64,000 nucleotides of DNA, from contig JAFWMN010000011.1 of NCBI GenBank assembly GCA_017513865.1, positions 142,752 through 206,751 on the forward strand, written 5' to 3'. Below the pieces are notes generated by a model. It worked only from the letters and a program-made list of their open reading frames with translations, had not been told where the DNA came from and did not search any database. Source of the DNA: Bacilli bacterium (lineage in GTDB: Bacteria; Bacillota_I; Bacilli_A; RF39; UBA660). Within the stretch, counting starts at the first letter, position 1. Each line of letters starts with the position of its first letter. The position numbers and the translations under genes are program-made. Shown here one piece after another: positions 31,242 to 52,674 of this stretch.

Positions 31242-31913
31242 CTACGGGTTTTGTGCTTGTGAAGTATCTGACTGTGCCTGTGAAGTATCTGACTGTGCTT
31301 GCGCAGTACTTGACTGCGAAGCAATATCTTGGGTAGCTGTAATCTTAACATGAATCTCAATTTCATTTTCAAGAGGATAAGTATTTTTAAAATCATATGA
31401 TGCTTTTCCCCAATATGTATCAAGAGCATCATCACCTGACTCATAAGGCCAAACAATAAGCATCTGAAAGTTTGTACTATCAGTAATTCCAATTGTCGGA
31501 TTACCAACCGAAAAAGTTATTGTAAATGGATAATTATTAGCTAACATACTCTCAAGCTGTGCTGAAGTATAATTATCATTAGTATAAGTATTCTCAAATA
31601 TTTTAACCGATGTCAGTTCATATATAATATTTGCAGGCATTTCACCGGAATTTCTAATATTAATGGTATCAGTATAATTACTCATACCTGGATAAATATC
31701 CGAAACATTAAAGACAACATTATTAACTAAAGTAGTACCATTTTGCGCAAAAGTAATTTTCCAAGATTTTACACCCGCATTAATTGTCGCAGCAATCTTA
31801 TTACTATAAATAAACCACGCAAATGCATTAGCCATAAACATAAGTACAAGGAAAAATATTGTCCTTCGCCTAAGTCCTTTTTTTAATTTAACATGACTAC
31901 CCTTGCTCTTCAT
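31242..31913 (-). CDS. SipW-type-signal-peptide protein (TasA/CalY-like filament subunit candidate)
   Basis: Basic N-terminus, hydrophobic helix, NAFA|WF, beta-rich body with IYPG and WPYESG.D..DT.WG. Overlaps the adjacent sipW. Confidence 0.65.
   Translation of the reverse strand: MKSKGSHVKLKKGLRRRTIFFLVLMFMANAFAWFIYSNKIAATINAGVKSWKITFAQNGTTLVNNVVFNVSDIYPGMSNYTDTINIRNSGEMPANIIYELTSVKIFENTYTNDNYTSAQLESMLANNYPFTITFSVGNPTIGITDSTNFQMLIVWPYESGDDALDTYWGKASYDFKNTYPLENEIEIHVKITATQDIASQSSTAQAQSDTSQAQSDTSQAQNP
31252..31310 (-). repeat. 21-bp coding tandem repeat (SQAQSDT, about 2.8 copies)
   Basis: TGTGCYTGTGAAGTATCTGAC at 31252-31272 and 31273-31293, plus a partial copy. Confidence 0.85.
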
Positions 31914-32466
31914 TTTGAACCTTTTCTTCCTTTTCCTTTATAAAATCAAGAATTTCCAAAAATATTAATAGAGCAATTGGAACAAAAACAAGAAAATAAA
32001 ACCCATATGAATTATTAAGTATATGACTAAGTAAACTTAAAGTAACCGGCTTATACTTAACAACTCCGTAAACTTGTTTTTGATTAACTAAAGGATCTGG
32101 TTCAGGATTACTTATACCTTGTGTTTTATATGTGTAATCTTTACCGTTATAATTAATATTAATAACACGGTGCGTAATAATTTTTCCTTTATAATCCTTT
32201 TCTTCACCCATATAAACTAAATCATCGCCGATTTTAATCTTATCATAATCTTTACTTCCGACGATAATAACGTCACCAATTTCATACTCTGGAACCATAC
32301 TGCCGGTAGCAATAGTGAATATGCGAAAATTGCTTATTGTAACTTTATTGTTAAAAACTCTTTGCACAAGAATAACGGCTACTATGAGAATAGCAATTAC
32401 CCAAATAATAGCTCTCAAAATACCAACTATTATTTTAAATGCTTTATTATTCATTATTTTTTTCAT
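31897..32466 (-). CDS. sipW: Signal peptidase I, SipW/ER-type (S26B), intact
   Basis: TGSM catalytic Ser, GD, ITHRV catalytic His, N- and C-terminal TMs. Confidence 0.9.
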   Translation of the reverse strand: MKKIMNNKAFKIIVGILRAIIWVIAILIVAVILVQRVFNNKVTISNFRIFTIATGSMVPEYEIGDVIIVGSKDYDKIKIGDDLVYMGEEKDYKGKIITHRVININYNGKDYTYKTQGISNPEPDPLVNQKQVYGVVKYKPVTLSLLSHILNNSYGFYFLVFVPIALLIFLEILDFIKEKEEKVQNEEQG

Positions 32467-33565
32467 TTTTCTTCACCTTCAAATCATGATCTTTCGCCAT
32501 GTAAAGTTCAATTGCCTCTTTATATTTTTTAGCTATCGCACTTGTATCAACAACTTTTCGATATTTAACTTTAACATATTCATCACCGATGAGCCGCATA
32601 ACATCTTCTACTGAAAGTTGATCACTGATACTAAGTAATTGATTAACGGTATTTTCTGCAACTTTATTTTGAAGTTCTTCTTTCGGTTTTTCTTCTTCGC
32701 CATCAGCTGATTTCATTATCAAATAATTAAGCATAAATGAGTCATTCATCATCTGTTTCAATGCACCATTATCTTCATATCCATCATTTTTATTTTCATT
32801 TTTGCTACTTGGTTCCATATGTGACTGCATGTAGTTCCAAAGATCTAATGCATATTGAAAATTAACATTTTTTAAAATTAAATTAGTTTTTTTAATTGGT
32901 GAAACTACTGGAGCCACATGTAATTTAGCGATATCTTTATAAACACTTGTACTACATAAATCTGTAATTCGCTGCTCAAGCTTTTCTATTCTACCAGAGA
33001 TATCATCGCCTTTAGCATTCTTATCATCTAAATCACTTTTAATCTGTAAAGCAAGTTCTAATTTTTCTTTATTGACATTTGCTGTACCTCGATACTCTAA
33101 AGAACGATGTTCTTTCTTAAACGTTCCACTAATTGTTTCAGTTTTTTTTCTTTCTATATACATTTTCATATTATTGATAAGCGTATATATAAATCTATTT
33201 TCATAAGTATTAAAACTTTCTTCTTTATTAATATTTAAAATTTTAGAGGGTTTTACCTCATTAGTTTCTGGATCATATTTTTGAATAAAGTTCGTATTTC
33301 TAGATAGATGTTTTATACTATCAACCGTAATTCTTCTAGCAAGTTCAATTTTAACAATTTCCTCTTCATTAACAATAAATCTATTAGGGTTTCTAAGAAT
33401 ATTATCAAGATATCTAACGGTTTCCTCCATCTTCGTAAGCCATTCATCATCATACGCCCCGCTGTTGATTTTTCTTGAAACATTTAACGTTGACTTAACT
33501 GATGAATTAAAAGCTTTTCTTTTAGTATCATCCATATTGTTATAAAGATTAATAATATTGTTCAT
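32447..33565 (-). CDS. DUF2357 (McrC N-terminal-like) protein without a nuclease domain
   Basis: EESFNTYENRFIYTLI and KKTNLILKN.NF..A..LW. No PD-(D/E)xK motif visible. Directly downstream of the McrB-like gene. Confidence 0.75.
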   Translation of the reverse strand: MNNIINLYNNMDDTKRKAFNSSVKSTLNVSRKINSGAYDDEWLTKMEETVRYLDNILRNPNRFIVNEEEIVKIELARRITVDSIKHLSRNTNFIQKYDPETNEVKPSKILNINKEESFNTYENRFIYTLINNMKMYIERKKTETISGTFKKEHRSLEYRGTANVNKEKLELALQIKSDLDDKNAKGDDISGRIEKLEQRITDLCSTSVYKDIAKLHVAPVVSPIKKTNLILKNVNFQYALDLWNYMQSHMEPSSKNENKNDGYEDNGALKQMMNDSFMLNYLIMKSADGEEEKPKEELQNKVAENTVNQLLSISDQLSVEDVMRLIGDEYVKVKYRKVVDTSAIAKKYKEAIELYMAKDHDLKVKKNEKNNE

Positions 33566-33578
33566 AAAATCACTTCCA

Positions 33579-35120
33579 TTAAGTTAGTTTCTTAAGTCTG
33601 AGTAAATACTCCTCACATTCTTTCATAGCCCCTTTACCAAATGTTGTATCTAAAAATTCAATAAACCCATCAATCTCATCGCGAATATATGAGATATTTA
33701 ATTGTTCAAATTTTCTTAAAATTTTTCTGGCAATAAAGTAATCAACACCGTCTACTTCTTTTCCCCCACAAGCCACATAAACTGGTACAAACTTACGCAT
33801 GTGGGCAACAATACGGTTACCGAAAGCGATACGGAAATGTTTAATAACATAATTATCCATTTCCTCTATTTTGTTAAGCATTTCTTGACTTACTTCATTA
33901 TCTTTAATTGCTGTCATAAACATATTGTTTAAATAAGAATAATTAATATCTTGTGCTGGAATATTATCAGGTTCAAAAACTTCACCCTTATCATTTATAT
34001 CAATTGGCATCGCACGGTCGTACACTTTGTCAGTAACCATAAATGTTGAGTCATCGTTGTTGATTGTTCCTATATACCAAACATTAGGGCTTATTTTAAG
34101 TTTTCCATCAATTAATTTAATTGGGTCATTACCCCAACCACTAGAAACAAGCTCAACAATCCACTCATCTTGGTTTGGCATTTCCAAAATAGAAAGCATT
34201 TCTGCAAAATAATACTCAACTCTGGCGATGTTCATTTCATCCAAGATTACTGTAAATATATCATCAGTATATCCTGCTTCATATATAGTTTTAAGAACAT
34301 CAGTTTCATTAAATTTTTTAGTGAATTCGTTAAAATAACCAAATAATTCAGTACGATCACGCCAAGATGGTTGTACAGAAGCTACACATGAATCGTGTTT
34401 CAAGAATTTTCCCCAAGCATAAGCAAGCGATGTTTTACCAGTACCAGAGATACCTTGAAGGATGATTAACTTCGTAGATGCCAGAGCGGCAATAAAGATT
34501 CTAATCATTTCAGTTTTATAATATAAACGAAGTTGACTAGCTGCAAAATGTCTAAATAATTCAACAAGTTCAGGTAATGTAAATGAGTTGTTATAATTTT
34601 TAACAACATAATCTTTAAATTCTTTATCGATATTATTAAGCTTAGCAAATCTTTTGCCTTCATCATCGTCATCCACTGTTTCAGCTGTCGCACTATCATT
34701 TTCAGTTTTAACCTCTTCAGTATCAGGTTGATCTGGTCTCAATCCTAAATGAGATACTTTCATTGCTAAAATATCTTCTTTTTCTTTTACCAATGTTGAA
34801 ACTTCATTATTTAAAGTTGCAACCTCATTTAATAAATCCTCTTGTTCAACAAAACTCTTTCTAAAACGAATATATTTTCTAATTAGTAAAAAGAGCAAGA
34901 AAATAAGTCCACCCATGACAACTACCATTAAAATTATAGAAATAATAATGAATACCCACTCTGAACCATTAAAATCATCCTTATAAAAATTAAAGATTTT
35001 AAGATAACTTCTAAAGTCAAATACTTGCATAATTGCTTTCGCGATTGCATCAGCAATCGTCAAAAAACCACCAAAAAATTGACCTAGAAATTCATACAAA
35101 AATCTTAAAAATGTATCCAT
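33579..35120 (-). CDS. Membrane-anchored, coiled-coil McrB-like AAA+ NTPase
   Basis: N-terminal amphipathic helix, TM and coiled coil. Walker A GISGTGKT, Walker B ILDEMN, ARVEYYFAEMLS, GTINNDDST, VYDRA, FGNR. Confidence 0.85.
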   Translation of the reverse strand: MDTFLRFLYEFLGQFFGGFLTIADAIAKAIMQVFDFRSYLKIFNFYKDDFNGSEWVFIIISIILMVVVMGGLIFLLFLLIRKYIRFRKSFVEQEDLLNEVATLNNEVSTLVKEKEDILAMKVSHLGLRPDQPDTEEVKTENDSATAETVDDDDEGKRFAKLNNIDKEFKDYVVKNYNNSFTLPELVELFRHFAASQLRLYYKTEMIRIFIAALASTKLIILQGISGTGKTSLAYAWGKFLKHDSCVASVQPSWRDRTELFGYFNEFTKKFNETDVLKTIYEAGYTDDIFTVILDEMNIARVEYYFAEMLSILEMPNQDEWIVELVSSGWGNDPIKLIDGKLKISPNVWYIGTINNDDSTFMVTDKVYDRAMPIDINDKGEVFEPDNIPAQDINYSYLNNMFMTAIKDNEVSQEMLNKIEEMDNYVIKHFRIAFGNRIVAHMRKFVPVYVACGGKEVDGVDYFIARKILRKFEQLNISYIRDEIDGFIEFLDTTFGKGAMKECEEYLLRLKKLT

Positions 35121-35131
35121 TATATCACCTT

Positions 35132-36127
35132 CTAACTATTTGGTATACTATTTGGTATATATATAATATTATAATCAACCTTCACCTTATCATAAATTTG
35201 TTCATCATCAGTAACTATAAAAACAAATAATTTAAGTAATTTTAAATTTTCTTCATTAAACTCAAAAGTTTTATCAATTTTTAAAGCCACTTTATACCCT
35301 TCTCTTGTAAGTTCAAACACTTTTTCTCTATTAGAAAGAAAATCTTCATAGCTTAGCTTTAATATTAATTTTTCTTTTATAATATCATTATTTATATATT
35401 TTAATAATCTTTGATTTTTTTTAGGTTTGCTGGCTATTGAAAACTCATAATCAACAATATAAGTTTTTGTAAAGTTTCCCTTAATAATATCTTGTAAAGC
35501 TCTAACTGTTGCAATCGGATAAGTTACAAAAAGCTTTTGCTCACTAATACTTTTACTGTTGAAAACTTTACTAATCGCATAATCACTATATAATTTAGAA
35601 AATTTTAAGTTGTGCTCTAACACACAATAAAATATTTGGTCTTTAACTTTAACATAATTCATTGTAAAATTTTTATCATCAAAACTTTCTAAAAACTCTT
35701 TTTTAGCCAACAAATCTTTCTCAAGCATATTATATAATTTGGCTTCAAAATCACTATCAACCAATTTTAAATAAACTATTCGCACTTTTTTTATTTCATT
35801 TATTATTTTTCTAGCTGAATCGCATTCCACAACCCCATCAAAAACTAAAATATATTTAAACATTTGGAACATATATTTTGCTTTATCCCTAAACTTAAGA
35901 TCATCCTTTACTTTTTGCAAAGATTTTTTTAAATAGTAAACAATATTTTCTTCAAATCGCTCACTAACAACTGGATATAAATTATAATACCTTGTGTTAA
36001 TATATGCATTAATCAAATCATCATATATATCCTGATCAAAATAATGTTCCAAAATAAGCTCTAAATATCTCTTAATCGCATTTTGTGAATAAGAAATATA
36101 CTCTGTGGCAATATCATAGTTCATCAA
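35132..36127 (-). CDS. Hypothetical protein, C-terminal half resembling a degenerate EAL domain
   Basis: Spacing of LILKLSY...ELTREGYKVALKID...LKLLKLFVFIVTD parallels EAL LEITE...L...G..IA.DDF...L..L..D.IKID. Acidic catalytic residues are absent. Confidence 0.45.
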   Translation of the reverse strand: MMNYDIATEYISYSQNAIKRYLELILEHYFDQDIYDDLINAYINTRYYNLYPVVSERFEENIVYYLKKSLQKVKDDLKFRDKAKYMFQMFKYILVFDGVVECDSARKIINEIKKVRIVYLKLVDSDFEAKLYNMLEKDLLAKKEFLESFDDKNFTMNYVKVKDQIFYCVLEHNLKFSKLYSDYAISKVFNSKSISEQKLFVTYPIATVRALQDIIKGNFTKTYIVDYEFSIASKPKKNQRLLKYINNDIIKEKLILKLSYEDFLSNREKVFELTREGYKVALKIDKTFEFNEENLKLLKLFVFIVTDDEQIYDKVKVDYNIIYIPNSIPNS

Positions 36128-36135
36128 ACCAGCTC

Positions 36136-37083
36136 CTAATATCTATAAGTAACAGTTAAAACATTACTATTACTATAATCGGCATTTTTATTCTTTTTAT
36201 AAAATTTAATAACACTACTAATGCTTGAATCCATATCAAATTTAAATTTTTTAACATAATTGTATCCACCGATAGATTGTGTTTCGATATCATATGCTTT
36301 AATAAAATCAGAAGATGTATTATCTATTAAAACAACCGTTGGGTCAAAGGCAACTGTAATTATTGCGGAAGCACACTTTCTTTTATTAATATCGGTAAGA
36401 ACATCATATATAGCTTTACTAATGTGGTTTCCCTCTGTATAAGTAACAGTATTTCCAGAAACAGTATCACTAAAACTCTCTTTAACAAGATAAGAATCCA
36501 AAGTATTTGTAACCCTAAGTGTCAAATAAGGATCACCTGCACTATCTTCAATTGAATGTCCAAGGCCATATTTACCAACAATCAAAGTAAAAGTAGCAGA
36601 AAGTTCCTTCACATAAGGACTTGTAGATGAAGCATAAACACTAAAAGTGACACTATCATTATCATTAAAAATTGCATTCGGTGTCATGGTAAAAGTAAAA
36701 TTATCAGTATTTGAATTTGCTGAAACTGTCCCACTCGTTTTAGACAAACTACATATAACATTGTTAGGGCAAGAATATCTAGTTGTATATGTTATATCAT
36801 GAGAACTTTTCAATTTGTCATTTTTAAAACTATTTATATTTATAGCAATATCATAAGGATCTACACCATTCCAATAATTCAAAGAATAACTAGCTGCCGG
36901 ATCTTTTAATTTATCACTTTCAAAAAAGAAATTTTGTGTTAAAAAATATAAATTTAAAACTCTTTTGTAAACATATTTACCAAAACTAACAGTTAAGGTA
37001 AGAGACATCATACATATGAAAACAACGATGATATATTTTTTAACCTTTGAAAGTTTATGAACTCTAATTTTTCTTTTCAGCAT
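36136..37083 (-). CDS. SipW-type-signal-peptide protein (minor filament subunit candidate)
   Basis: Basic N-terminus, hydrophobic helix, VSFG|KY, FFFESDKL, Ser/Thr-rich beta domains. Confidence 0.6.
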   Translation of the reverse strand: MLKRKIRVHKLSKVKKYIIVVFICMMSLTLTVSFGKYVYKRVLNLYFLTQNFFFESDKLKDPAASYSLNYWNGVDPYDIAININSFKNDKLKSSHDITYTTRYSCPNNVICSLSKTSGTVSANSNTDNFTFTMTPNAIFNDNDSVTFSVYASSTSPYVKELSATFTLIVGKYGLGHSIEDSAGDPYLTLRVTNTLDSYLVKESFSDTVSGNTVTYTEGNHISKAIYDVLTDINKRKCASAIITVAFDPTVVLIDNTSSDFIKAYDIETQSIGGYNYVKKFKFDMDSSISSVIKFYKKNKNADYSNSNVLTVTYRY

Positions 37084-37552
37084 ATTTATACTTCTTTAAC
37101 AAAATTATAAAATAAATAATTATTGGAATTATCACAAACAGTAAATATCCTATTTTGCTAGTAAAAAACACATATAAATATCCAAGTAATGGTATATGAA
37201 TACTGGAACTAGTTGTCCCAACAATATATTCACTAGATAAAAATTCATTATCCCGAATCACGTATGTAAGACTATCAGTATCTAATACTTTTTTAACAAC
37301 TTCGCTATTCAAAAAATTGGTTCCACTACTAGTATCATAGAAAAGTATTTCATCACCAACTTTTATATCATCTTTGTTTAAAATAATAAATAAATCACCT
37401 TTTTTTAAAGTAGAAATATTTCTTTCACTATCGGCAATAGTGACATTACCAATTTTACTATCTGAAAACTTATTAAAAGTAAATAGTAATATCGTGGTTA
37501 CTATTACAAATAAAGCATAAATAGTCAGAAGTACATACTTAGCTACTCTCAT
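37064..37552 (-). CDS. Catalytically degenerate SipW-like protein
   Basis: SipW topology (TM, KGDL..I, IKVGDEILFY, YIVG, IPLLGY, C-terminal TM GYLLFVIIP) but no GSM serine or HR histidine. Confidence 0.65.
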   Translation of the reverse strand: MRVAKYVLLTIYALFVIVTTILLFTFNKFSDSKIGNVTIADSERNISTLKKGDLFIILNKDDIKVGDEILFYDTSSGTNFLNSEVVKKVLDTDSLTYVIRDNEFLSSEYIVGTTSSSIHIPLLGYLYVFFTSKIGYLLFVIIPIIIYFIILLKKYKYAEKKN

Positions 37553-37713
37553 CTAGCATCACCATAATAATTGTATCATAAATTTAAAGTATTTTAAAGT
37601 ATTACCACGAATAAAACCCTACTCTTTTAAAAAAAATGATATAAAATTTTTGATTAAGTAATAAATAGTATTCATAAGTTGTTTTTTTTGGCACAAAACA
37701 TCTGTTAAAGCAC

Positions 37714-37737
37714 AAAAAAAGGAAGTAAATACTTCCT
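37714..37737 (-). terminator. Intrinsic terminator after 37743..38786
   Basis: AGGAAGT-ATTT-ACTTCCT followed by T run on the minus strand. Confidence 0.7.
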
Positions 37738-37742
37738 AAATA

Positions 37743-38786
37743 TTATCCACCTTGTGATTGAGAGGTAATAGATACATCCACAATACTAAATTGTAAGTAG
37801 AAACTGATTTCTCCACCTGATGCATTGTTTTCACAGTCAACATCTTGTCCTTCAACCCACATATAAATACGCATTTTTGTAATACCAGCTAACAAACCAT
37901 TTGCTGCCGTTAATGTTTGACTAGTTGTATAACCTTCAACCGTTTTAATATCTGGATTAACATCAGTAAAATATTCAGAATGTAAAGTTTGTGTGGCTTG
38001 TTCACGTTTGATGCCTAAAGTATCAGCAAACTCTGCTTTTACTCCTGAATATGGAACCCAAGCATTACTAGTACCTTGACTTAAAGTCGTAATACCATAA
38101 GGGCTTATTGCGTTAGCAACACCATCGGCTGTATGAACATTGTAATTAGGCTCCCAAATTTTAACAGTTGATGAAGTTCCATCATTTAAAGCTCTAATGT
38201 TAGCAATAGAATCAGAAGTTGTCGTATGACCTAGTGTAACAAAAGCAACTCTAGTAGCATTTTTAATACCACTATCAGAATTTCTAAACGTTACTCGTGA
38301 GTTCGGAGTCATATATAAAGTTTCATTACTTTCGTTTTTAAGGAAAATATCAAACGCTATAAATTTACCTGAAGCTGTCGTATTAGTTTCAACAGATTGA
38401 GTTGCACTTAACACAAAGTCTCCGGTTGTCTCGTTAGCTATAACTTGCCCTAAAAACATTTTCATTTTACCAGTTGCATCCACATCACCAATTGTTGAAA
38501 CTGGTTCAAGCGTAGATGGAACTTGGTTAACCGCTGCTGTATATGTTGCAGAAGCCCCAGTTATATCAGAATTTATTAAAACTGACTTCCAGTTACTACC
38601 ATCTGCCGAAATTTGGATACCACTAGATGTAGATACGTTTACATCGATTGGGCTAATTGTTACTTTTTGGTTAGCCGTGAACCATGCAAATGATGCTGTT
38701 CCTAAAAACACGCCTGCGGCAAGTAATAACAAAAGAGTTAATAATAATCTTCTTTGTTTTCTTCCATTATTTTTTTGATTTGCCAT
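37743..38786 (-). CDS. SipW-type-signal-peptide protein, probable major filament subunit (TasA/CalY-like)
   Basis: RKQRR, Leu-rich helix, TASFA|WFTAN, C-terminal IYMWVEGQDVDC. Has its own promoter, AGGAGG RBS and terminator. Confidence 0.7.
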   Translation of the reverse strand: MANQKNNGRKQRRLLLTLLLLLAAGVFLGTASFAWFTANQKVTISPIDVNVSTSSGIQISADGSNWKSVLINSDITGASATYTAAVNQVPSTLEPVSTIGDVDATGKMKMFLGQVIANETTGDFVLSATQSVETNTTASGKFIAFDIFLKNESNETLYMTPNSRVTFRNSDSGIKNATRVAFVTLGHTTTSDSIANIRALNDGTSSTVKIWEPNYNVHTADGVANAISPYGITTLSQGTSNAWVPYSGVKAEFADTLGIKREQATQTLHSEYFTDVNPDIKTVEGYTTSQTLTAANGLLAGITKMRIYMWVEGQDVDCENNASGGEISFYLQFSIVDVSITSQSQGG

Positions 38787-38810
38787 AAAATCCTCCTACT
38801 TTCTACTACC

Positions 38811-38839
38811 ATAATAACATATTTTAAAAAAAACGACAA
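38811..38839 (-). promoter_or_regulatory. Extended -10 sigma-A promoter for 37743..38786
   Basis: TTGTCG (38839-38834), N17, TATTAT (38816-38811) preceded by TG. Confidence 0.7.
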
Positions 38840-38856
38840 TACTTTATTTAAAAAAA

Positions 38857-39420
38857 TTATGTTTGCTCTGCATCAACTGTAACTTCAATCACATCAATCA
38901 AATCTTGAAAAATCGCACTTCTATAAGAAACAGGAAAATTAATGACTAAAGTGTATGTATCAGTTTTCTGAACACCATGGACAAAACTACCAACTTGGGG
39001 ATTATATCTATAAAAGTACATTCCATCATCATCTTGAATTGTTTCTTTAGTACCGATAATATCTGTGTCCCCACCATTCGCATATAACTTATAAGAAACA
39101 GGGACATTAGTCGTTGTTTTTATCCGTAAAGTATAATCCATATCAACTTCACTAGTCTTTCCGTTTTTAAAATTTGAAACAGTAATACTATAACTAAAAT
39201 TTGAGCCATCAGGAGCTAACTCTCCAATTTTTATTTGCTGAGTTTGAGGGATAGGATCAATTACATAAAAAGCAATTTTGTTAGAAACAGTCCCTTCAGC
39301 ATCACTATGAAAAATTGAAAACACTGTTTTCATTAAAATTAATATGATAAAAAAACCAAAAACAGAAATGGTAATTTTATTAAATAATGTAAACTTTTGC
39401 TTATTTAACACTAGAACCAC
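38857..39420 (-). CDS. SipW-type-signal-peptide protein (minor subunit candidate)
   Basis: Hydrophobic helix, KTVFS|IF, ELAPDG, YSITVSNFKNGKTSEVDMDY (similar to the 36136 protein). Confidence 0.6.
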   Translation of the reverse strand: MVLVLNKQKFTLFNKITISVFGFFIILILMKTVFSIFHSDAEGTVSNKIAFYVIDPIPQTQQIKIGELAPDGSNFSYSITVSNFKNGKTSEVDMDYTLRIKTTTNVPVSYKLYANGGDTDIIGTKETIQDDDGMYFYRYNPQVGSFVHGVQKTDTYTLVINFPVSYRSAIFQDLIDVIEVTVDAEQT

Positions 39421-39976
39421 CCTTTTTGATTTTTATTCCCGAATAATAAATGCCAAAATCATCACTTTTTGTCAAAATTCTTTTCCCAGTATAAGAAAAA
39501 GCTAATGAGAACATAAACAATGTAAAACAAACTAATATAATGATTTTAGGCGTCGTAAAAACCTTATACCAGACACCCATATTTGGAAGGATTTTTACAA
39601 CTTTTCCGACAACCTGATCTTTTCCAATTTGCTTATCTCTAGCATTATTCGCATCACCTTTAGTAACAAAACCATTGCCGGTTTTAGAAATAACTCTATG
39701 GGTGACTAAAATATCACCATCTTTATAAGTTATAACATCATCAACATCGACATTTTTAGTTATCTTAACTAAAATTAAATCATTTGTCGTAATTGTTGGA
39801 GCCATACTGTTACTACCTATTTGAAATAACGTATGTGAAAAGAAACTAGCATAACTGTTGGATAGAATATTTAAAGAAACAAATAAATATATACAAATAC
39901 CCAAAACAATAAATAATAATGCCGAAAACACTTTACTCACTATCTTTACAAAACTATATAAATAGTCTCTTTTCAT
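39401..39976 (-). CDS. sipW: Signal peptidase I, SipW/ER-type (S26B), intact
   Basis: SNSMAPT catalytic Ser, VTHRV His, TKGDANN..D. Confidence 0.92.
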   Translation of the reverse strand: MKRDYLYSFVKIVSKVFSALLFIVLGICIYLFVSLNILSNSYASFFSHTLFQIGSNSMAPTITTNDLILVKITKNVDVDDVITYKDGDILVTHRVISKTGNGFVTKGDANNARDKQIGKDQVVGKVVKILPNMGVWYKVFTTPKIIILVCFTLFMFSLAFSYTGKRILTKSDDFGIYYSGIKIKKGGSSVK

Positions 39977-39992
39977 ATTCTATCACCACCTT

Positions 39993-40562
39993 CTATTCTA
40001 TATGCTGACTAAAACTAATACTAACTGGTATTTCAAAATAACCATCAGCTGATCCCATCGCTGAATCAGTAACATCATGATTACCATCATCATTCCAAGT
40101 AAAAGTTACTCTTATAGTATCTGTTACACCATTAATTATATCAGATAAAGGAAAAACTCTACCATAAACGCCATTATTAGCCGTAAGATTAGTCCCGTTA
40201 ATTCCCTGAATACTATCGATCGTAATTTGATCATACAAAGAATTACTTAAATCAATAGATATTTGATACTCAAAAGAAACTTCCGTATCCCCTGGATCAA
40301 TTTCAAGGAGAAAAGAACCAGTAACCCCTGGTGCAAATCTACCCGCACTAACACTTTGATTATTTGTATAAGTTATATTATCAACATAAAAAGTATTAGT
40401 TGTATTATTTAAATCATAATCATTAACATATATGTGCCACTTTGCTATATCTATATCGCTATCTTCAGTAAACCTTGTTTCAAAAACACCAAAACTTCTA
40501 GTAATTTGAAAAAAAGTTAAAACAAGAAATAGACAACTTATAACTGTTAACGTTTTTTTCAT
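39993..40562 (-). CDS. SipW-type-signal-peptide protein (minor subunit candidate)
   Basis: MKKTL start at 40562 coupled to the upstream stop. TRSFG|VF, AKWHI.VN, FAPG, TWNDDG..D.TDS.MG. Confidence 0.65.
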   Translation of the reverse strand: MKKTLTVISCLFLVLTFFQITRSFGVFETRFTEDSDIDIAKWHIYVNDYDLNNTTNTFYVDNITYTNNQSVSAGRFAPGVTGSFLLEIDPGDTEVSFEYQISIDLSNSLYDQITIDSIQGINGTNLTANNGVYGRVFPLSDIINGVTDTIRVTFTWNDDGNHDVTDSAMGSADGYFEIPVSISFSQHIE

Positions 40563-40563
40563 A

Positions 40564-41349
40564 TTATAAATATTCAATGTCATCTTTTTCTGAAGAAGTT
40601 TGATTGGTTACTTGAACCTCAGGTGTAACAGGCTTTTCCGCACCTTGATCTTGAACCTGCTTTTCAGTAGTTACTTGTGATTCTACTGCTGGAGTTTCAA
40701 CTACTGGCTCTGCTACTGGTGCAGCCTCTACTTTTGGAGCTTCAGTCACTGGTGTTTCAACCTCTGTAGTAGCTACTGCAGGCTGAACTTCTTGAGCTGG
40801 CTCTACTATTTTAACAGGTTCTTCTTTAGCTTCTTCAGCTGGCGCTTTTAACTCTTTTACAAATCTATAAATGGCATAGAAGAAAAGTAATAATGCTGGT
40901 AAAATTACCAAAATTAAGAAACCATACTGTGATTCAAATATATATAATATTTTTCCTACATTATGATAAACTTTAGCAGTAGATGTCTTACCAATAACTA
41001 AATCACTAGAAACGAGGTGTTCTCCATTTATATTAAAAGCAACTTCAGCATCAGAATTTTCTACTGTTGCTGTGACTTTACCATATCTTACTTTAGATTC
41101 ACCCTTAGTAATTTCATAGAAGAAAATTTCATCACCCGAAGTGATTTCGCTATCCGGATTCTTTGTAAAAATAGCTAAATCCCCATCTTCATACATGTCA
41201 CTTTCATTATCAATGATAATAAAAGTTTTGTCTTTTATCTGTGTAACTTTATATTGGTTATAACAAAGCAAACATACAGTTGCAAATAAAATTACTGCCA
41301 AATAAATAGTACCAATAATCCCTAAAATAATTTTTAAAAACTTTTTCAT
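40564..41349 (-). CDS. Catalytically degenerate SipW-like protein with Pro/Ala/Glu/Val-rich cytoplasmic tail
   Basis: TM, EDGDLAIF, ITSGDEIFFY, LVIGK, YGFLILVILP TM. No catalytic Ser or His. About 95-aa low-complexity tail. ATG at 41349 is 7 nt from GAGGAG. Confidence 0.65.
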   Translation of the reverse strand: MKKFLKIILGIIGTIYLAVILFATVCLLCYNQYKVTQIKDKTFIIIDNESDMYEDGDLAIFTKNPDSEITSGDEIFFYEITKGESKVRYGKVTATVENSDAEVAFNINGEHLVSSDLVIGKTSTAKVYHNVGKILYIFESQYGFLILVILPALLLFFYAIYRFVKELKAPAEEAKEEPVKIVEPAQEVQPAVATTEVETPVTEAPKVEAAPVAEPVVETPAVESQVTTEKQVQDQGAEKPVTPEVQVTNQTSSEKDDIEYL

Positions 41350-41401: not shown

Positions 41402-42916
41402 TTAATTTAAATCTATGGCTTTTATCATTTTAGCATCCCTTAATTTAGAAATTGGTATTCCCAATACCTTCATTTGATAATTGGTAACAATTCTCTCCAA
41501 ATCAGAAATTAAACTTTCAATCGAACTTTCATCCGCTAAAGACTCTTCAATATTAATATTTAACATTTTATAATTTGTTATTATTATATCTGAAAGTTCA
41601 CGTTCTTCTAAAATCGTAACATTATTAATTAAAGTATTACTTGGATCCATTGTAAAATCAAACAACTCATCAATTCTTTGATCAATAACATCATAAGTTA
41701 TGCCTTCTTCTTTTTCTTTAAAGTAATCAGCTAAAATTTTATAATATTGACAAGCTAATAATAATACTTTAAAAAGCGTCGAATTATCTCTGATATGTTC
41801 TTTAATAGCAACTTTAAATATGTTAGTATCTATTTCATCATATAAAGCTTTAATTTCCGCTATTTTTGCGTTTATTTCAGGTTCTACTTTAGAAGTGCTG
41901 GTTTTAGATTCTTTACTAGCGTCTTTCTTATTTAATTTAAATAATTTGCCTTCTAAACCAGAAATTTTTTTAAGCGTTTTTTTCATATAATCTTTTTCAA
42001 TATTATCTTTATATAATTCCCTAGCTTTATCAATTAAATCTTTATATTTCAAATAACTTTTATATTCTTTAAGTGAGTTTAACAACTGTTTTATAACTAC
42101 AATTTTACTTTCATCATAATCATTATTTTTAAATAAATTTGCTGTTATAGCTGCGATTTTTTCATCAGTATATTCCTCAATATCTTTATTTTGATTATAA
42201 AAATCTAAAATCATATTTGTTTTACTAGAAAACTCTTTTTGTTTTCTTCTTAAAAAATTATAATCATCTAAAATACTTGTTTCTGCTTTAGTAAAACGCT
42301 CTTTAACTTGCCTATTTACAAGTTCAATATATTTTTCACAGCGGGCTTTATTTTTTAAATACAAGTATCTAAGATTTAATTCAACTCTAATCATAATATC
42401 TGGACATTTCCAATAAACATTATCAAAAACCTCTTTGATTTTTTGATTAGTAAGACCTTCTTCAAAAAACATTGGTACGTACTCATGAACTTCGTTTGTA
42501 TAATTAAAATCTTTAACCATAAGCGGACAGTTAGCTGCTTTAAAAATATTGATTGCCTTCAGTATCTTAATATTATTATTAATAAGTTCATCATCACTAT
42601 AATTTGTAAGCTGATAAACTATTTTATCTAAATCTAATTTTTCATATGCGGTACTTAAGGTATTAGTATAAGAAAGTGCTTTTAAAAGATTTTTTAAAAC
42701 TACATCATTATTAGAAATCTCTTCATATTTTAAGTTTTCAAAAGGTTCTAACCTTCGTTTAAGTTCTGTCTTAACATCATCAATTTTCTTTTGATAACTT
42801 TCCATTTCTAAAGAAATTTCTTTTAAAAATCTTTCTTTATTCTTTTTATTATTAACCGGAAGCCCATTTAAAAGTTCTTCAGTAAGTTCTATTTCTTTTT
42901 CTAATTTTTCAAGCAT
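41402..42916 (-). CDS. Hypothetical all-alpha/coiled-coil cytoplasmic protein
   Basis: About 504 aa from ATG 42916, overlapping the upstream stop. Lys/Glu-rich helices, VYWKCPD motif, no TM. Confidence 0.6.
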   Translation of the reverse strand: MLEKLEKEIELTEELLNGLPVNNKKNKERFLKEISLEMESYQKKIDDVKTELKRRLEPFENLKYEEISNNDVVLKNLLKALSYTNTLSTAYEKLDLDKIVYQLTNYSDDELINNNIKILKAINIFKAANCPLMVKDFNYTNEVHEYVPMFFEEGLTNQKIKEVFDNVYWKCPDIMIRVELNLRYLYLKNKARCEKYIELVNRQVKERFTKAETSILDDYNFLRRKQKEFSSKTNMILDFYNQNKDIEEYTDEKIAAITANLFKNNDYDESKIVVIKQLLNSLKEYKSYLKYKDLIDKARELYKDNIEKDYMKKTLKKISGLEGKLFKLNKKDASKESKTSTSKVEPEINAKIAEIKALYDEIDTNIFKVAIKEHIRDNSTLFKVLLLACQYYKILADYFKEKEEGITYDVIDQRIDELFDFTMDPSNTLINNVTILEERELSDIIITNYKMLNINIEESLADESSIESLISDLERIVTNYQMKVLGIPISKLRDAKMIKAIDLN

Positions 42917-43211
42917 CCTCTTCACTCTTTTCCTCAGAAGATTCTTCAGATTTTTTATTTTCTGATTCGTCTTCATCAAGATTAATTATATCTTCGTTTT
43001 CCTCTTTTGATTCTTCTTCACTGTTAGCATTTTCTTCTGCACTTTCTTGATCAGAAGTTTCTTCTACCTTCTCTTCCGCACTTTCTTCTTTAACCTCTTC
43101 TGGAGCATCTAAATTATTGCTTATTTCTGTTTTTTTATTATCAAGTTGCTTGAAATACTCCAAAAGTCTTTTATAATAATCAAGTAATTCTTTTGTTTCA
43201 ATTCCTTCCAT
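42909..43211 (-). CDS. Small acidic protein (N-terminal helix plus Glu/Ser-rich disordered tail)
   Basis: 100 aa, RBS GGAGGT, sits between the giant gene and 41402..42916. Confidence 0.6.
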   Translation of the reverse strand: MEGIETKELLDYYKRLLEYFKQLDNKKTEISNNLDAPEEVKEESAEEKVEETSDQESAEENANSEEESKEENEDIINLDEDESENKKSEESSEEKSEEDA

Positions 43212-43222
43212 ACTAATACCTC

Positions 43223-46200
43223 CTATTTAATTATAATATATTGAGAGCAATCCCCAATAAAGGCTGTACCATCATATAAACTAAAGACAAATTTGTACGT
43301 TCCACTAATAAGTAACGTTTTTAAATAAAGTGTCTTAGTCATGCCATGTACCGGCGTATCAATAAACATATATTCATTAGTAGCACCACTAATCGCACTG
43401 AGTTGATTAGTTACATAATCTGCCAAATCAACTTCATTATAAGTTGAAGAATCAGGATTGGTGTAATCGCGTCGATACAATTTAACATGAACATTAGGGT
43501 TTGCAAAAGTTGAATTATATTCCACTGTAAAATTCAAAAGATTGTTATCATTTAAAGTATACCCCATTACTTTATCAATCATCATTTCATTATCAGTTAA
43601 TTTAATTTTTAAACCATATGTACTATTAATTATAGTAAACGGAATATTTAAAGTATCCTGTGCCACATGGCCATAATAAATACCATCCGGTGAAGTAAAT
43701 GATTCAATTTTAAGAGTATAGTTGCCTGAAACTAAATTGACATTTTGAGTATTTATTTTTATTCGCTTAAATATATTTGCAACTCTATCAGCCAAAGCAA
43801 TTCTTACACTTCCATCCATACGTGGATAATAAGTAGTTCCATCAACTTCATAAGATAACCCAAGCAAGCTACTATTATTAAGTTGATTGCCACTAGAATT
43901 ATAAATTGTTAACTTAACTCCTGGTTTTTTATTAAAGTGACTTGTGTCAACAACCGGAAGTGAGTTTACAATTGGTTGTGTAAAGTTACCTGTCAAGTTT
44001 AAAGTAACCGTATCCCCAATATAAACAGGATTTTCACTTAAAGTTCCACTGATATCAACGACAGCATTACTACCAGCATACATATTATAAGTGAGGGACG
44101 ATCGTTGAATACCCAAAACACTAATTAGGGTATTATTTTGAGCATCCCGCAAATCCATAAATAACGTATTACCCAGCTGATTGTTTGCGATTGATGTATC
44201 TTCAAAATTAACGATAAATATAAACTCTTCTTCTACTGTTCCTGCTGTACTATTATAATATTTTGCAACATTTTGACTCTCATTATAATTGTTATTAGTG
44301 CTAGTCGAACCCATTTTTATAAAATTAGCTAATTCGTAATAACACTCACCATCTAAATTATATTCACTAGTTGTTCTAGCAACCGTCGCACTATCTACAA
44401 TAAAATAATAAGTTTCATTATCAATTAAATCAAGCATAGTTATTTTTGTGTTTTCTGGGAAAACGTAATTTGAAAGTAATGAGTGATGATATCCCGTTCT
44501 ATAATATGAATTTTCTGTATTCATAAATAATGAATAATAAGCACTAAACATCGATTTAGTATTTATATTTGTCGGACTAGAAGCAAACATATTAAATTTT
44601 TCACCTGATGTCATTGCTCCTTCATAATCATTATTATTATATAAAGCAGAAGTAAGTGTTACATTAATATTAACACGATTTACTTCATCATTAAGTTCAT
44701 CAATTGGTGTAGATGTTTCCAACGAAATAATTACTGTTCCAATTTCTCTAGATAATGTAATATTTTTAGAATGATAAAAATAGAAAAGTAATTTTGGAAC
44801 TGCCGTTGAGTTTTCAGAGATATATTTTTTTGTACCTAATACCGGATTACTACTATTAGTTACAAACGATGTAGAACCAGAAGTAACAAAACCAGTGTTT
44901 GAAGGCTCAAATTTAAGTCCCATTTTCGTATCAGCTGTTCCTTCATTATTAACCCTAGGAATCTGACTTTCTTCTACGAGCTGAAAACCAGTTTCCAAAT
45001 CTTCATAGTTAAATCCTAAAATCTGGAAAGTCGTGTTTGGATTATTAGAATAATCAAGAGGAAGTTCATAAGTTCCCAAAGTCGCATATTTAGATGCGGT
45101 TAAAGTTATATCATAAGTGGCAACTTGTTCTCCTATTAACCACCTATAAAATTCTCCTTCAGGTGGGCTTGGTTCAATATAAGCAACTTTTATATGTCCT
45201 TCATTATCTTTATCAGCAAAATTACTATAAAAACCATCAACCTTTATATTATGGTTTGTATGATGTGATCCAACCACATAACTACCAGAGGTAAATGCAT
45301 ATAAAACGTTACTTGCTTCATCACCATTACTATAAGAATTATCATACAAAGCCGTAATAACTCTGCCGTTTCCACCAACTTTATACATACCAAAGAATGT
45401 CATACCACTAACTCTACCATAAGCCGAAGCAAATTCATTAGTTGCTATGTTCAGATTCTTTCCTTCAGCCATATATATTCTATTATTAACATTTCGCGTC
45501 ATACTACCTGAATCAGTAATATTTGCAGCAGCTTTTTCCACCGTATTACCAGTTATTTTTTCGCTATAAAAACTCTTTAATAAGTTTACCCCAACATCTA
45601 GAAATAATGTACTATCATTAGCTAAAACAAGTTTATCAATTCGGCTTAATGTAAATTCAACATCCGAAAATTCATTAGTTCTGTCCTTCGCACCTTCTAA
45701 TTTTATTGCTGAATTCTTAATCGTCAATGTGTCTGTTCTTTGAATAGATACATTTTCTTTATAATTTGTAAAAGTTCCGTAATTAGAAATATTTATTTCA
45801 CTCGTTCCAGAAGTAGATGAAGCATTACCACTACCAAAGATTGAACCATCTATATTAAAACTATTATATCCGGCTCCATCAATATTAACTTGAATAGCCC
45901 TCGTTACTCCGATAAAGTTAAAGTCATATATAGGTGACCCACTAGCATTAGCTTCACCACCGCCAAAGACTGTTCCATCTATTTGAATGTTAGATTGAAC
46001 TATATTATTAGCCGAATATCCAACATTAACAATTGCTGTACCATATAAAACCGCAGTATTAGCTCCACCATAAACATTTCCGTGAATAGTAGCTCCTGCA
46101 ATGTTAACGTGACTAGTAGAAGAATTACTGTTTTGTGTACCAGTGTTTGCCGCATTTCCACCACCAAATACATGTTCATGTATAATTGAACCATTATGAA

Positions 46201-49200
46201 CTGTTATATCTGTATTTCCATAAACAATAGCCGACGCACCATTACCACCAGCGTAGGCACTACCATATACTGTAGAGCCAGAAATCTTAACAGTAGAATT
46301 GCCTAAAACTTCGCCTAAGTTTCCACCACCAAAGAAATCACCAGCAATTGTCGAAGAAACAAAATTAACATTAGTATTATAATTTACAGCCGCACTATTT
46401 CCACCACCAAAGAAATCGCCAGTAACATTTATGCCGTTTACATAAACCGTAGTATAATCTGTTTCTGCATTGTTACCTCCACCATAAATATTAGTGTATG
46501 TTCCGCCAACAAGATTTAAAGCTGTATCAACTGTTTTTCCACCAGCATTATTTCCACCATAAACTGAAGTTACTGTCAAATTAGAAGCATTGTTTGTCGT
46601 AACATTACTTTGCGTAACTGTACCAGCAGAATTACTACCACCATAAACTGCAGTGGCAGTCCCACTTACTAGATTTACATTGGTTGTTCCAACACCCGCG
46701 CTGTTTCCACCACCAAATAATGAACCAACAGTAGCACCTCTTAAAGTAATATTTGATGTGGTTGTTTGAGCATTATTTCCCCCGCCATAAGCCGTGGTAA
46801 TTGCTCCTGAGTTTAAATTTACATTTGTTGTTACTGTCGTTCCTCCGGCATTATTTCCACCATAAACTGTAGGAACATTTGCATTAATATTTACTAAAGA
46901 TTCTTGGACAGTTCCGGTTTGATTAGAACCACCATATATTGCTCCTGTTATCGTACCACTAGTTAAAGTGATATTACTCTTTGTTGTAACATTAGCACTT
47001 TGACCACCACCGTAAGCATTCGTAGTAGTTCCGCCAATAATATTGACATTGGTTGTTCCCGTTGCCGCTTCTTTTCCGCCACCATAAACTGTCGTAATTG
47101 TTCCTGAATTTATATTAACATTTGTTGTAGTAGTAGTACCACCTTCGTTATTCCCACCATAAACTGTAGGAACACTTGAATTAATATTTACTAAAGATTC
47201 TTTAACTGTTCCGGTTTGATTAGAACCGCCATATATTGCCCCTGTTATCGTACCACTAGTCAAAGTAACATTACTTTTTGTTGTAACATTAGCACTTTGA
47301 CCACCACCATAAGCATTAGTAGTAGTTCCACCAGTAATACTAACATTGGTCGTCGCTGTCGTGGCTTCTTTACCACCACCATATAAAGCCGTAACTGTTC
47401 CTCCAGCCATATTGACATTAGTAATTGGAGTCGTTCCTCCAACATTATTTCCACCATATACATTAGTCGCGGTACCATTATTAATATTAACAACTACATC
47501 ACCAACAGGTGTTCCGTTAGCGTTGTTTCCACCAAAAACATTAGTAATATTTCCGCCATTTATATTTACTGTAATATCACCCGCAACACACGGCGCTTGT
47601 GTAGAACTTCCTTCACCGCCGCCATATACATTAGTAATTGTTCCAGAATTAACATTAACCGTCGTTTTATATGTGCTTTCAGTTGTCGTAACACTTGCTG
47701 AATTTACTGTACCAAAAGCACTTCCGCCATATACACTACCAATAGTAGGTCCAGTAGTATTAAGAGTTCCTATTGTAACATTAGAAGCTCTTTTTACATA
47801 AGTGTTACTACCTTGACCACCGCCATATACACTACCGGTTACTGTCCCACCAGTAATATTTACACTAGTATTACCAGTAACAATACCTGACGTATTAGCG
47901 CCGCCATATACATTGCCAGCTACAGTACCGCCACTCATATTAATAATAGCATTAGTGGCAACGTTATAATCCTCTACTTTGTTCTGGTTTCCACCACCAT
48001 ATACACTACCTTGTATAGAACCATTTAAAATGGTAATTTTAGATTCAGCTGCAGAATTACCACTACTAACACCTGTAACTCCGTAATTTCCACCGCCATA
48101 AATACTGTCATTAATAGTACAATTTTCATTAATAACAATGTAAGAATTATCGTTAGATCCAATTCCTAAGTATCCACTTTTACCATTACCATTACCAAAT
48201 ACATTTCCTGGATTAACGCCATACATATTAGAGCCACTAGCTAAAGTAGTATCACCTATAACAGCATCGCCACCAACATAAATAAAACTAGAGCCATATA
48301 AAGTACCATCACCATCACTAGTATTACTTATATTACCATTAGAACCACCTAAAACACTATATTTAACATTTCCACCAGTAACAGAAATAATTCTATTACC
48401 ATAAGTTGAAGATCTACCGGCTCCGCCAACAATTAAATCAACATCGCCGCCAGTCATATAAATATAAGTATCATTAACCGCACGTCTAGAAGAAGAGGTT
48501 AATGGACCACCTATCAAATTATAAATCCAGCCGCCCTCTATTTTAGCACTTCTAGCTGCATTATAAGTTCCATTAAGGACGCCACCAACATATACGCCAG
48601 TATACATATCAGCCTTGCTGGTACCAAATTTGCCGCTTTTTATAACCTGCATAACCGCAGAATCATTAGCAGAATAAATGTTTCCAGCCCATGAAGCTGT
48701 AGCTTCATAATAAACTTCTAAATTGTTATTATTTTCTCTAACTCGGTCCAAATCATTACCAAATATTGCTTCAGCCTGTATATATAAATTGTCATAATCA
48801 TATCTATTGGTTGGTTCTGTAACCGAAGTATTATTATAATATCCAGATTCGATAATCAATTTATATCTAGTATTTGAACTGCTACTTCCTGTAGACGTGT
48901 TTCCACCAATAAGTCCGTTAAAATTAACATAATTATTATATTTACTTAACCCGCGACCAACTTTTAAATTATGGTAAGTTGCATTTAATAGTCTACTGTT
49001 ATTCATATCGGCAGAACTATAATCAGTACCAGAACTAATAGTCATATGCTCAATAGTTGTGTCATTAACAAGTGATATATTTGCCCCTGTCGTCCATCGG
49101 TTAGTTGATTGTGTACCGTTTGCAAGTATTCCAGTAAAAGTAAAAGGTTTATTATAAGTACTACCTGTACCCCAGTTAGATGTTAAATTACTAGTATTTA

Positions 49201-52260: not shown

Positions 52261-52674
52261 TTATTTCTTATCATTTCTTCTAAGGCCAAAATCAAAATCC
52301 TGATCGCTATTCACTGCTGTCATTGAAATTGTTTTAAATAAATCATCTAAATCTAAAACCTCATCATTAACTTCATCAATTTTTTCTTCTTTTGAAGGGT
52401 AAAGATCTAAAACTTCAATTTCCTCTTCTTGTTTATTTAAAGGTTGTATTGCTGCATTTAATGGTTGTGGATTAGTTGCTGATTTTTCTTTTTTCTTAAA
52501 CATTTTAGAAAAAATAGATTCCTTTTTTTCTTTTGAATTATTAATTACATCATTTTCTTTTTTTCTATATTCTCCACTAGGCTTATTCTTTTCCTTCTTT
52601 TGTCTAATTATTTTTAATATTAATAGTAAGCCAAAGCATATAATGGCTATTAAAACTAAAAAAACAATCCACAT
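52261..52674 (-). CDS. Small bitopic membrane protein with charged cytoplasmic tail
   Basis: N-terminal TM, Lys-rich then acidic tail (EEEIEVLDL, DEVLDLDDL). Confidence 0.55.
   Translation of the reverse strand: MWIVFLVLIAIICFGLLLILKIIRQKKEKNKPSGEYRKKENDVINNSKEKKESIFSKMFKKKEKSATNPQPLNAAIQPLNKQEEEIEVLDLYPSKEEKIDEVNDEVLDLDDLFKTISMTAVNSDQDFDFGLRRNDKK

Follow-up and report, generated by a model that had tools for sequence, protein, structure and literature searches.

The window analysed here, a 64,000-nucleotide stretch of contig JAFWMN010000011.1 (assembly GCA_017513865.1, positions 142,752 to 206,751 of the forward strand), has a G+C content of 28% and lies within a 1.3-Mb metagenome-assembled genome (MAG) of a Bacilli bacterium. 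Its minus strand carries two genes, named here psA and psB, whose products resemble the SipW-type signal peptidases of family S26B, and which lie in one gene array with two active SipWs, named here ACT1 and ACT2. We are highly confident that psA and psB are S26B-derived homologues that are dead as enzymes: they descend from this family but are not active members of it, and all three catalytic features that were tested are absent from them. Both genes are under purifying selection, and their products (hereafter pseudo-SipWs) are specialised non-catalytic paralogues and not pseudogenes.

Homology, fold and loss of the catalytic site

The kinship of psA and psB with signal peptidases is visible only through fold comparison and NCBIfam or HH profiles. 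TIGR02228, the NCBIfam model for signal peptidase I of the archaeal/endoplasmic reticulum (ER) type, has a curated cut-off of 51.85 bits. psA matched model positions 8-156 of 158 with an E-value of 8.6e-8 and 32.2 bits, and psB matched the model with an E-value of 1.4e-3 and 18.5 bits, both below the cut-off. The active neighbours ACT2 (86.3 bits) and ACT1 (77.2 bits) scored above it and have the catalytic motifs, in agreement with the original prediction, made from the sequence of the window, that two active SipWs stand alongside two dead ones. psB also matched NF046067 (SipW) with an E-value of 2.5e-5, and the B. subtilis SipW model touched both psA and psB, at 17-24 bits against a cut-off of 190. 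Neither protein matched TIGR02227/Peptidase_S26, the bacterial Ser-Lys type; a Pfam search of both gave no meaningful match, and a search of the PDB sequences with single sequences and profiles gave nothing significant.

Profile comparison with hhalign aligned the psB family to ACT2 over 169 columns that include both transmembrane (TM) helices (probability 98.7, E-value 3e-16) and to the ACT1 type with an E-value of 1.5e-5, which places the dead family nearer to the ACT2 type by profile score. The family profiles of psA and psB matched each other with an E-value of 5e-38. psA consists of an N-terminal TM helix, a beta-rich ectodomain, a C-terminal TM helix and a short basic tail; psB has the same layout plus an acidic, Pro-rich cytoplasmic tail of ~85 aa ending in DDIEYL. 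Common to the dead and active SipWs are the N-terminal TM helix, the GD-L-x-I and GD-E-I-x-F-Y strands, the V-I-G strand and the C-terminal TM helix. AlphaFold (AF2) monomer models built on the family alignments showed a helix, beta-domain, helix arrangement for each protein, with a predicted local distance difference test score (pLDDT) of 86 for psA and 83 overall, but >93 in the core, for psB. When both models were compared with the PDB using Foldseek, human SEC11C/SEC11A came out on top (probability 1.0, 146-151 aligned columns, 148-residue target), and LexA/UmuD and Streptococcus pyogenes SipA (probability 0.96) appeared at lower ranks for psA. The models thus adopt the S26 fold with an N-terminal TM anchor, and together with the alignments and the TIGR02228 matches they bear out the claim that psA and psB have kept the SipW topology and the GD-x-I-x-F/Y core.

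The catalytic site itself is gone. In alignments, the position of the catalytic Ser holds V/T/I or N/E in psA and psB, and the T-H-R position holds N-S-E or Y-G-K, which confirms the predicted loss of the Ser (GSM) and the His (THR). In addition, the K-G-D-x-N-x-x-D box, which provides the third residue of the triad, has disappeared from both pseudo clades through a 6-residue deletion. Related loci were obtained by a pattern scan with one genome per species, which yielded 80 loci; their open reading frames (ORFs) were called and grouped by iterative search, and every SipW-like ORF was sorted by its catalytic columns. Active copies with Ser and His numbered 139, all but three of which (136/139) also had the Asp, and about 100 dead copies lacked the His. 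The His column of these dead copies held G in 40, A in 29, S in 10 and E in 8 cases, and that of 139 aligned representatives of the psB family held G in 71, A in 32 and S in 18; the Ser column of the pseudo clade was variable or gapped.

A close psB subfamily has kept a Ser (Ser50, in D-x-x-S-D) two residues off the catalytic column, with Gly in the place of the His. Conservation of Ser50 in close psB relatives would fit the alternative that the proteins are still enzymes, whose active site has been rebuilt from other residues (Ser50 in this subfamily; juxtamembrane Asn, Glu and Ser) and serves cleavage or cross-linking, and so would the conservation of N31 and S140 (each at least 90%) and of the consensus residue E139 across the wide family. 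However, the Ser50-type residue is not conserved across the wider dead family and is missing from psA, no candidate nucleophile or base in the ectodomain is conserved family-wide, and the Asp box is deleted. We consider a rebuilt active site extremely unlikely.

The inactive state is itself conserved. The 49 relatives of psA have the same length and 43-90% identity, all lack the Ser and the His, and they share the motifs LLFTFNKFS, TYVIRDNEFLS and GYLYxFFTSKIGYLLFVIxPI. A library clustered at 50% identity contained 489 representative clusters of psB relatives at E<=1e-3. Those family members to which a source gives a name are all called "hypothetical protein", and none has a precomputed Pfam domain. 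The ratio of non-synonymous to synonymous substitution rates (dN/dS) against orthologues from one congeneric genome was 0.12 for psA, 0.125 for psB and 0.076 for the active ACT2. Together with the S26B fold and the fixed place in the operon, the dead state of hundreds of homologues, which are overwhelmingly dead and not intact, and these dN/dS values uphold the suggestion that psA and psB are specialised non-catalytic paralogues. The scores below the family cut-offs are what decaying pseudogenes or chance ORFs would give, but this explanation is refuted by intact frames in hundreds of genomes, the low dN/dS, the confident AF2 models and conserved synteny, and we assign it a negligible probability.

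Conservation in the dead family peaks where TM1 (CLLxYNxYKVT) and TM2 (ESxWGFLxLxxLP) reach the outer leaflet, the place expected for the cleavage region of a signal peptide or for a partner helix. The psB tail (window positions 40564-40830) is of low complexity (E/V/A/P) and varies in length among relatives. Its terminal motif, DD[IV]E[YQS]L(F), is conserved among Bacilli relatives; the tails of Clostridia relatives are rich in K/E and terminate in EEKRALIEAKKKK. A cytoplasmic partner may dock on the short motif at the end of the psB tail. The cytoplasmic tail was also considered as the key functional part of the protein, an idea that was dropped because most of the family (71 of 100 members) lacks a long tail. 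Also rejected was a third "pseudo-SipW" that jackhmmer had flagged at 52261-52674 (minus strand), just upstream of the operon: this 137-aa protein has only one TM helix, at its N-terminus, and an acidic low-complexity tail. The tail contains two E-V-L-D-L-type motifs, which faintly resemble the end of the psB tail.

Gene array and related loci

psA and psB belong to a single long array of minus-strand genes that runs from position 50419 down to 31242 (Table 1). The 3' end of each of the two extends 20 nt into the following ORF. The order giant protein, helical protein, pseudo-SipW at the upstream end of the array is kept in at least 24 loci; a Pfam search of the 525-aa helical protein gave no match. 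By its gene content the operon is of the CoCoPALM type (Bell et al. 2024): it encodes an McrB-like NTPase with a membrane N-terminus and an McrC-like partner, which always follows in the 58 loci, and it contains signal-peptidase-family genes, in the window two active and two dead SipWs.

Table 1. Genes of the array in the window, from its upstream to its downstream end, and enzyme-subunit fusions in related loci (arrow, break in the signal motif).
Feature	Position	Strand	Length	Description
Giant protein	43223..50419	-	2398 aa	Repeat adhesin-like protein; signal of subunit type (SYG↓QF)
Helical protein	41402..42979	-	525 aa	Cytoplasmic; directly upstream of psB
psB	40564..41349	-	261 aa	Pseudo-SipW, core type; ATG start, upstream GTG would extend it to 41355
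Small subunit	39993..40583	-	196 aa	Signal-anchored (SFG↓VFE); start overlapped by end of psB
ACT1	39401..39976	-	191 aa	Active SipW; SNSM, THRV, KGDANNARD; two genes downstream of psB
Small subunit	38857..39420	-	187 aa	Signal-anchored; after ACT1
Secreted subunit	37743..38786	-	347 aa	TasA-type signal (GTASFAWF); closes module 1, just upstream of psA
psA	37064..37552	-	162 aa	Pseudo-SipW, second, Bacilli-lineage type
Subunit	36136..37083	-	315 aa	Signal-anchored (SFG↓KYV); start overlapped by end of psA
EAL-like	35132..36127	-	331 aa	Cytoplasmic protein labelled EAL-like; upstream of McrB-like gene; found in 58 loci
McrB-like	33579..35120	-	513 aa	Membrane-anchored NTPase, N-terminal TM helix; conserved in 58 loci
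McrC-like	32447..33565	-	372 aa	DUF2357 (PF09823, E-value 5e-14)
ACT2	31897..32466	-	189 aa	Active SipW; GSMVPE, THRV, PEPD; directly after McrC-like gene
Subunit	31242..31913	-	223 aa	AFAWF signal; cognate substrate of ACT2 (basis: enzyme-substrate fusions)
ACT2-subunit fusion	L073:17113-18366			
ACT2-subunit fusion	L077:16778-18025			
ACT2-subunit fusion	L088:17137-18390			
ACT2-subunit fusion	L090:17005-18288			

All subunit classes have a signal-anchor followed by the motif [small]-x-[G/A/S]↓x-[Y/F]. SipW substrates such as TasA have an aromatic residue at P2' (PMC10269814), and because the motif matches this SipW-specific feature the subunits look like SipW substrates. It is on the signal-anchor, the shared cleavage motif and synteny that we label them putative fibre subunits. 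The genome has one ordinary LepB-type signal peptidase, located elsewhere (167 bits to TIGR02227), and five SipW-type enzymes above the cut-off, which indicates that the SipWs of the locus are dedicated enzymes. The three SipW-type peptidases outside the array are located at G000:C33:21355-21729, G000:C23:108226-108612 and G000:C13:21619-21978; two of them sit in ORFs of ~390 aa, and the three may belong to other fibre loci or be fusions. Only 2 of 25 genomes of the window's genus carry the system, which indicates that the locus is accessory and patchily distributed.

The 80 loci all came from MAGs of uncultured gut, rumen or faecal bacteria labelled Bacilli, "Tenericutes", Erysipelotrichaceae or Clostridia; a few loci labelled as other phyla look like binning or labelling errors. 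Gene order is near-constant: a pseudo-SipW, a ~200-aa subunit, an active SipW, a ~190-aa subunit and then a subunit of the 315-aa class, before which the Bacilli loci insert a ~350-aa subunit and a psA-type pseudo-SipW. The 315-aa class is followed by the EAL-like, McrB-like and McrC-like genes, an active SipW and a subunit of the AYAWF class. In Clostridia loci the 315-aa class is present and psA-type genes are absent. The quartet of pseudo-SipW, subunit, active SipW and subunit recurs with overlapping genes in about 70 of the 80 loci, and the number of copies per related locus ranges from one to three for dead and from one to five for active SipWs. Some loci seemed to be without McrBC, but in these McrBC was found just beyond the fetched flank, together with a psA-type gene, the two halves of the operon having changed places.

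The original prediction had placed each dead copy immediately upstream of a pilin-like gene. This holds for most loci: a psB-type gene is followed by the ~196-aa class in 70 of ~75 loci (median gap -4 nt, overlap in 44/70), and a psA-type gene by the 315-aa class in 11 of 12 (median gap -8 nt, overlap in 9/11), where the gap and overlap figures depend on start codons that were assigned mechanically. It does not hold for a distant Bacilli genome, G030, in which the pseudo-SipW lies directly before an active SipW.

Several loci depart from the common arrangement. Three genomes (G041-G043; loci L034, L036 and L044) have the halves of the operon in the opposite order to that in the window, one half extending from the giant protein to the 350-aa subunit and the other from psA through McrBC and ACT2 to the subunit of ACT2. 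The system thus consists of two movable modules, both of which begin close to a pseudo-SipW. Beyond the 58 loci that conserve the 513-aa McrB-like protein, copies 73-78% identical to it lie near the locus in three genomes. A Clostridia variant (L055, L057, L078-L080, L094, L097 and L098) carries one more pair of adjacent active SipW and pseudo-SipW genes, which come straight after the giant protein and bring the count per locus to three active and two dead SipWs.

Gene fusions link the active SipWs to other components. In four Clostridia loci ACT2 is fused in frame, through a K/E-rich linker, to a signal-anchored subunit of the AYAWF class (415-427 aa; Table 1), and on the basis of this enzyme-substrate fusion we assign ACT2 to that class. 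The fusion proteins would have to cut themselves free. In G030 (L020:11194-13698) an 834-aa protein combines an active SipW of the ACT1 type with a long coiled coil and an EAL-like domain, the pseudo-SipW preceding it directly. This fusion connects ACT1 with the cytoplasmic side of the system and implies that the peptidase and the cytoplasmic proteins on the McrBC side work as one trans-membrane assembly.

Co-evolution and possible role of the pseudo-SipWs

In a tree of 237 SipW-like proteins of the loci, all 98 dead copies fell into one clade (support 0.83). The active copies were split by their position in the locus into a clade of those following a pseudo-SipW (ACT1; 74/74) and a clade of those following McrC (ACT2; 50/53, support 0.999). 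The simplest reading of this tree would be one ancient catalytic loss followed by duplication, with psA as a branch of the Bacilli lineage.

Co-evolution was analysed with pairwise distance matrices over 40 complete loci, and partial correlations were obtained after removal of the McrB/McrC/EAL-like background. The matrices of pseudo-SipW and ACT1 correlated at 0.87, with a partial r of 0.57. The partial r of pseudo-SipW was 0.28 both with the overlapped subunit and with ACT2, and 0.21-0.23 with other subunits; the bootstrap confidence interval for the difference from the value with ACT1 was 0.10-0.48. The subunits correlated among themselves at 0.42-0.58. Copy numbers point in the same direction: in the Clostridia variants each extra active SipW has an extra adjacent pseudo-SipW, whereas ACT2 has no such companion and in some loci forms a fusion with its substrate.

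These correlations, the copy numbers and the conservation at the outer ends of the TM helices lead us to favour, tentatively, a role of the pseudo-SipW as a non-catalytic partner of ACT1 in a heteromeric platform, which we regard as quite possible but short of probable. In this scheme the pseudo-SipW would sit in the membrane with its ectodomain outside and would pair with the neighbouring ACT1 as a non-catalytic subunit. The pair would form a processing and assembly platform that holds or presents signal-anchored subunits and thereby matches the timing of signal-peptide cleavage to the incorporation of the subunit into the fibre. The cytoplasmic tail may, in some lineages, link the platform to the cytoplasmic parts of the system. 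The original prediction had proposed a hetero-oligomeric peptidase complex as one of several possible roles; this proposal gains modest, indirect support from the co-evolution with ACT1 and from pseudo and active copy numbers that track each other.

Several observations weigh against the platform. Mirror-tree correlations are weak evidence, as joint exchange of neighbouring genes can raise them artificially, and the tight overlap with the downstream subunit gene would fit a subunit-specific chaperone equally well. The tail, which so many family members lack, appears to be a lineage-specific addition that is not essential to the core role. Profiles of the small subunits gave no match to PDB or Pfam that would mark them as TasA-like. 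Finally, the TM-scores of the models to SEC11 are modest (0.39-0.47), a result that may stem from the placement of the helices and from SEC11 being without a C-terminal TM helix.

The chaperone explanation can be stated as follows. Like SipA, the pseudo-SipW would bind the signal-anchor and N-terminal strand of the downstream subunit (the 196-aa protein for psB, the 315-aa protein for psA) without cleaving it and independently of the active SipWs, and the tethered subunit would be the base, the nucleator or a primed acceptor for growth of the fibre. The frequent overlap with the subunit gene, given above for both types, argues for such a subunit-specific holder, and SipA, which retains its peptide-binding cleft, is a precedent (PMC4049620). 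Moreover, in the model for BsaA of Clostridium perfringens, donor-strand exchange takes place on the still-anchored monomer before SipW cleavage (PMC11580942), and a binding protein without cutting activity would have a natural place in such a step. On the other hand, the partial r with the overlapped subunit is no higher than that with unrelated genes of the locus and is below that with ACT1, no subunit lies between the pseudo-SipW and the active SipW in G030, and the Clostridia loci have the 315-aa class without a psA-type gene. We consider an independent chaperone somewhat unlikely but a serious rival to the platform.

Alternatively, the pseudo-SipW could be a negative regulator or decoy that competes for signal peptides, limits or delays processing, and so sets the length or timing of the fibre. 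A peptidase scaffold kept without its chemistry is compatible with this, as is translational coupling, which implies stoichiometric co-expression. A pure inhibitor would hardly be retained universally as a core gene across Bacilli and Clostridia loci, though, and we judge this role very unlikely.

The heteromeric platform with ACT1 can be extended to a more specific and unlikely proposal, namely that bacteria would have a hetero-oligomeric signal peptidase complex in which the pseudo-SipW serves as the non-catalytic subunit. Such a complex would be a counterpart of the eukaryotic signal peptidase complex (SPC) that arose by duplication of the catalytic subunit, and it would couple cleavage to fibre polymerisation outside and to an McrBC-like NTPase motor inside the cell.

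Relation to known systems and significance

In function, the closest known system is S. pyogenes SipA (LepA; PDB 4n31), a signal peptidase I in which Ser is replaced by Asp and Lys by Gly. It has an intact peptide-binding cleft, and polymerisation of the pilus requires it (Young et al. 2014, PMC4049620). SipA and the pseudo-SipWs have in common a signal-peptidase-I fold without catalytic residues, membrane anchoring and a gene in a pilus or fibre operon, and SipA presumably binds a component. They differ in that SipA belongs to S26A (Ser-Lys) and serves covalent pili built by sortase, whereas psA and psB derive from S26B (Ser-His-Asp) and are associated with SipW-processed fibres, have an additional C-terminal TM helix and adjoin active paralogues. 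The two families have independent origins: the best sequence and fold matches of psA and psB are to S26B, and in the tree the pseudo copies group with the SipW-type peptidases of the loci.

B. subtilis SipW, encoded in the tapA-sipW-tasA operon, shares with psA and psB the family, the fold, the two-TM topology and the dedication to fibre subunits (PMC10269814). It is catalytically active, unlike psA and psB, in which the Ser, the His and the Asp box are missing and whose scores fall well short of the cut-off of the SipW model. The third comparison is with the eukaryotic SPC (SEC11A/C with SPC22/23, SPC25 and SPC12; PDB 7p2p/7p2q), in which an S26B catalytic subunit is combined with non-catalytic membrane subunits. 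SEC11 was the best structural match of both models, but any complex is in the present case only inferred. To our knowledge, the non-catalytic subunits of the SPC are not paralogues of SEC11. As to SipW, work by Terra and co-workers from 2012 is said to have given it a signal-peptidase-independent role in biofilm formation.

The CoCoPALM class was named by Bell et al. (eLife 2024, PMC11090510), who deferred its analysis and did not mention catalytically dead peptidase homologues; the supplementary files of that paper contain no mention of peptidases or CoCoPALM. Literature searches yielded no description of dead SipW homologues, and the later literature adds nothing on CoCoPALM.

Dead signal peptidases that aid pilus assembly have been known from a single lineage, that of streptococcal SipA, which is derived from the bacterial-type enzyme. 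The family of psA and psB is a second, independently evolved and much larger one (at least 489 clusters at 50% identity), which goes back to the enzyme of the archaeal/ER type; it is a clean example of how pseudo-enzymes evolve convergently among membrane proteases. Within a so far unstudied fibre system, which occurs commonly in Bacillota of the gut and rumen, among them Bacilli with small genomes, it is one of the constant core genes, and it offers a handle on the assembly and anchoring of SipW-processed (TasA-like) fibres. The family also bears on the questions of why a restriction-type McrBC motor is wired to fibres and whether bacteria build multi-subunit signal peptidase complexes. If such a complex with an McrBC-like motor does exist, it would represent a new kind of energised fibre assembly system in Gram-positive bacteria.

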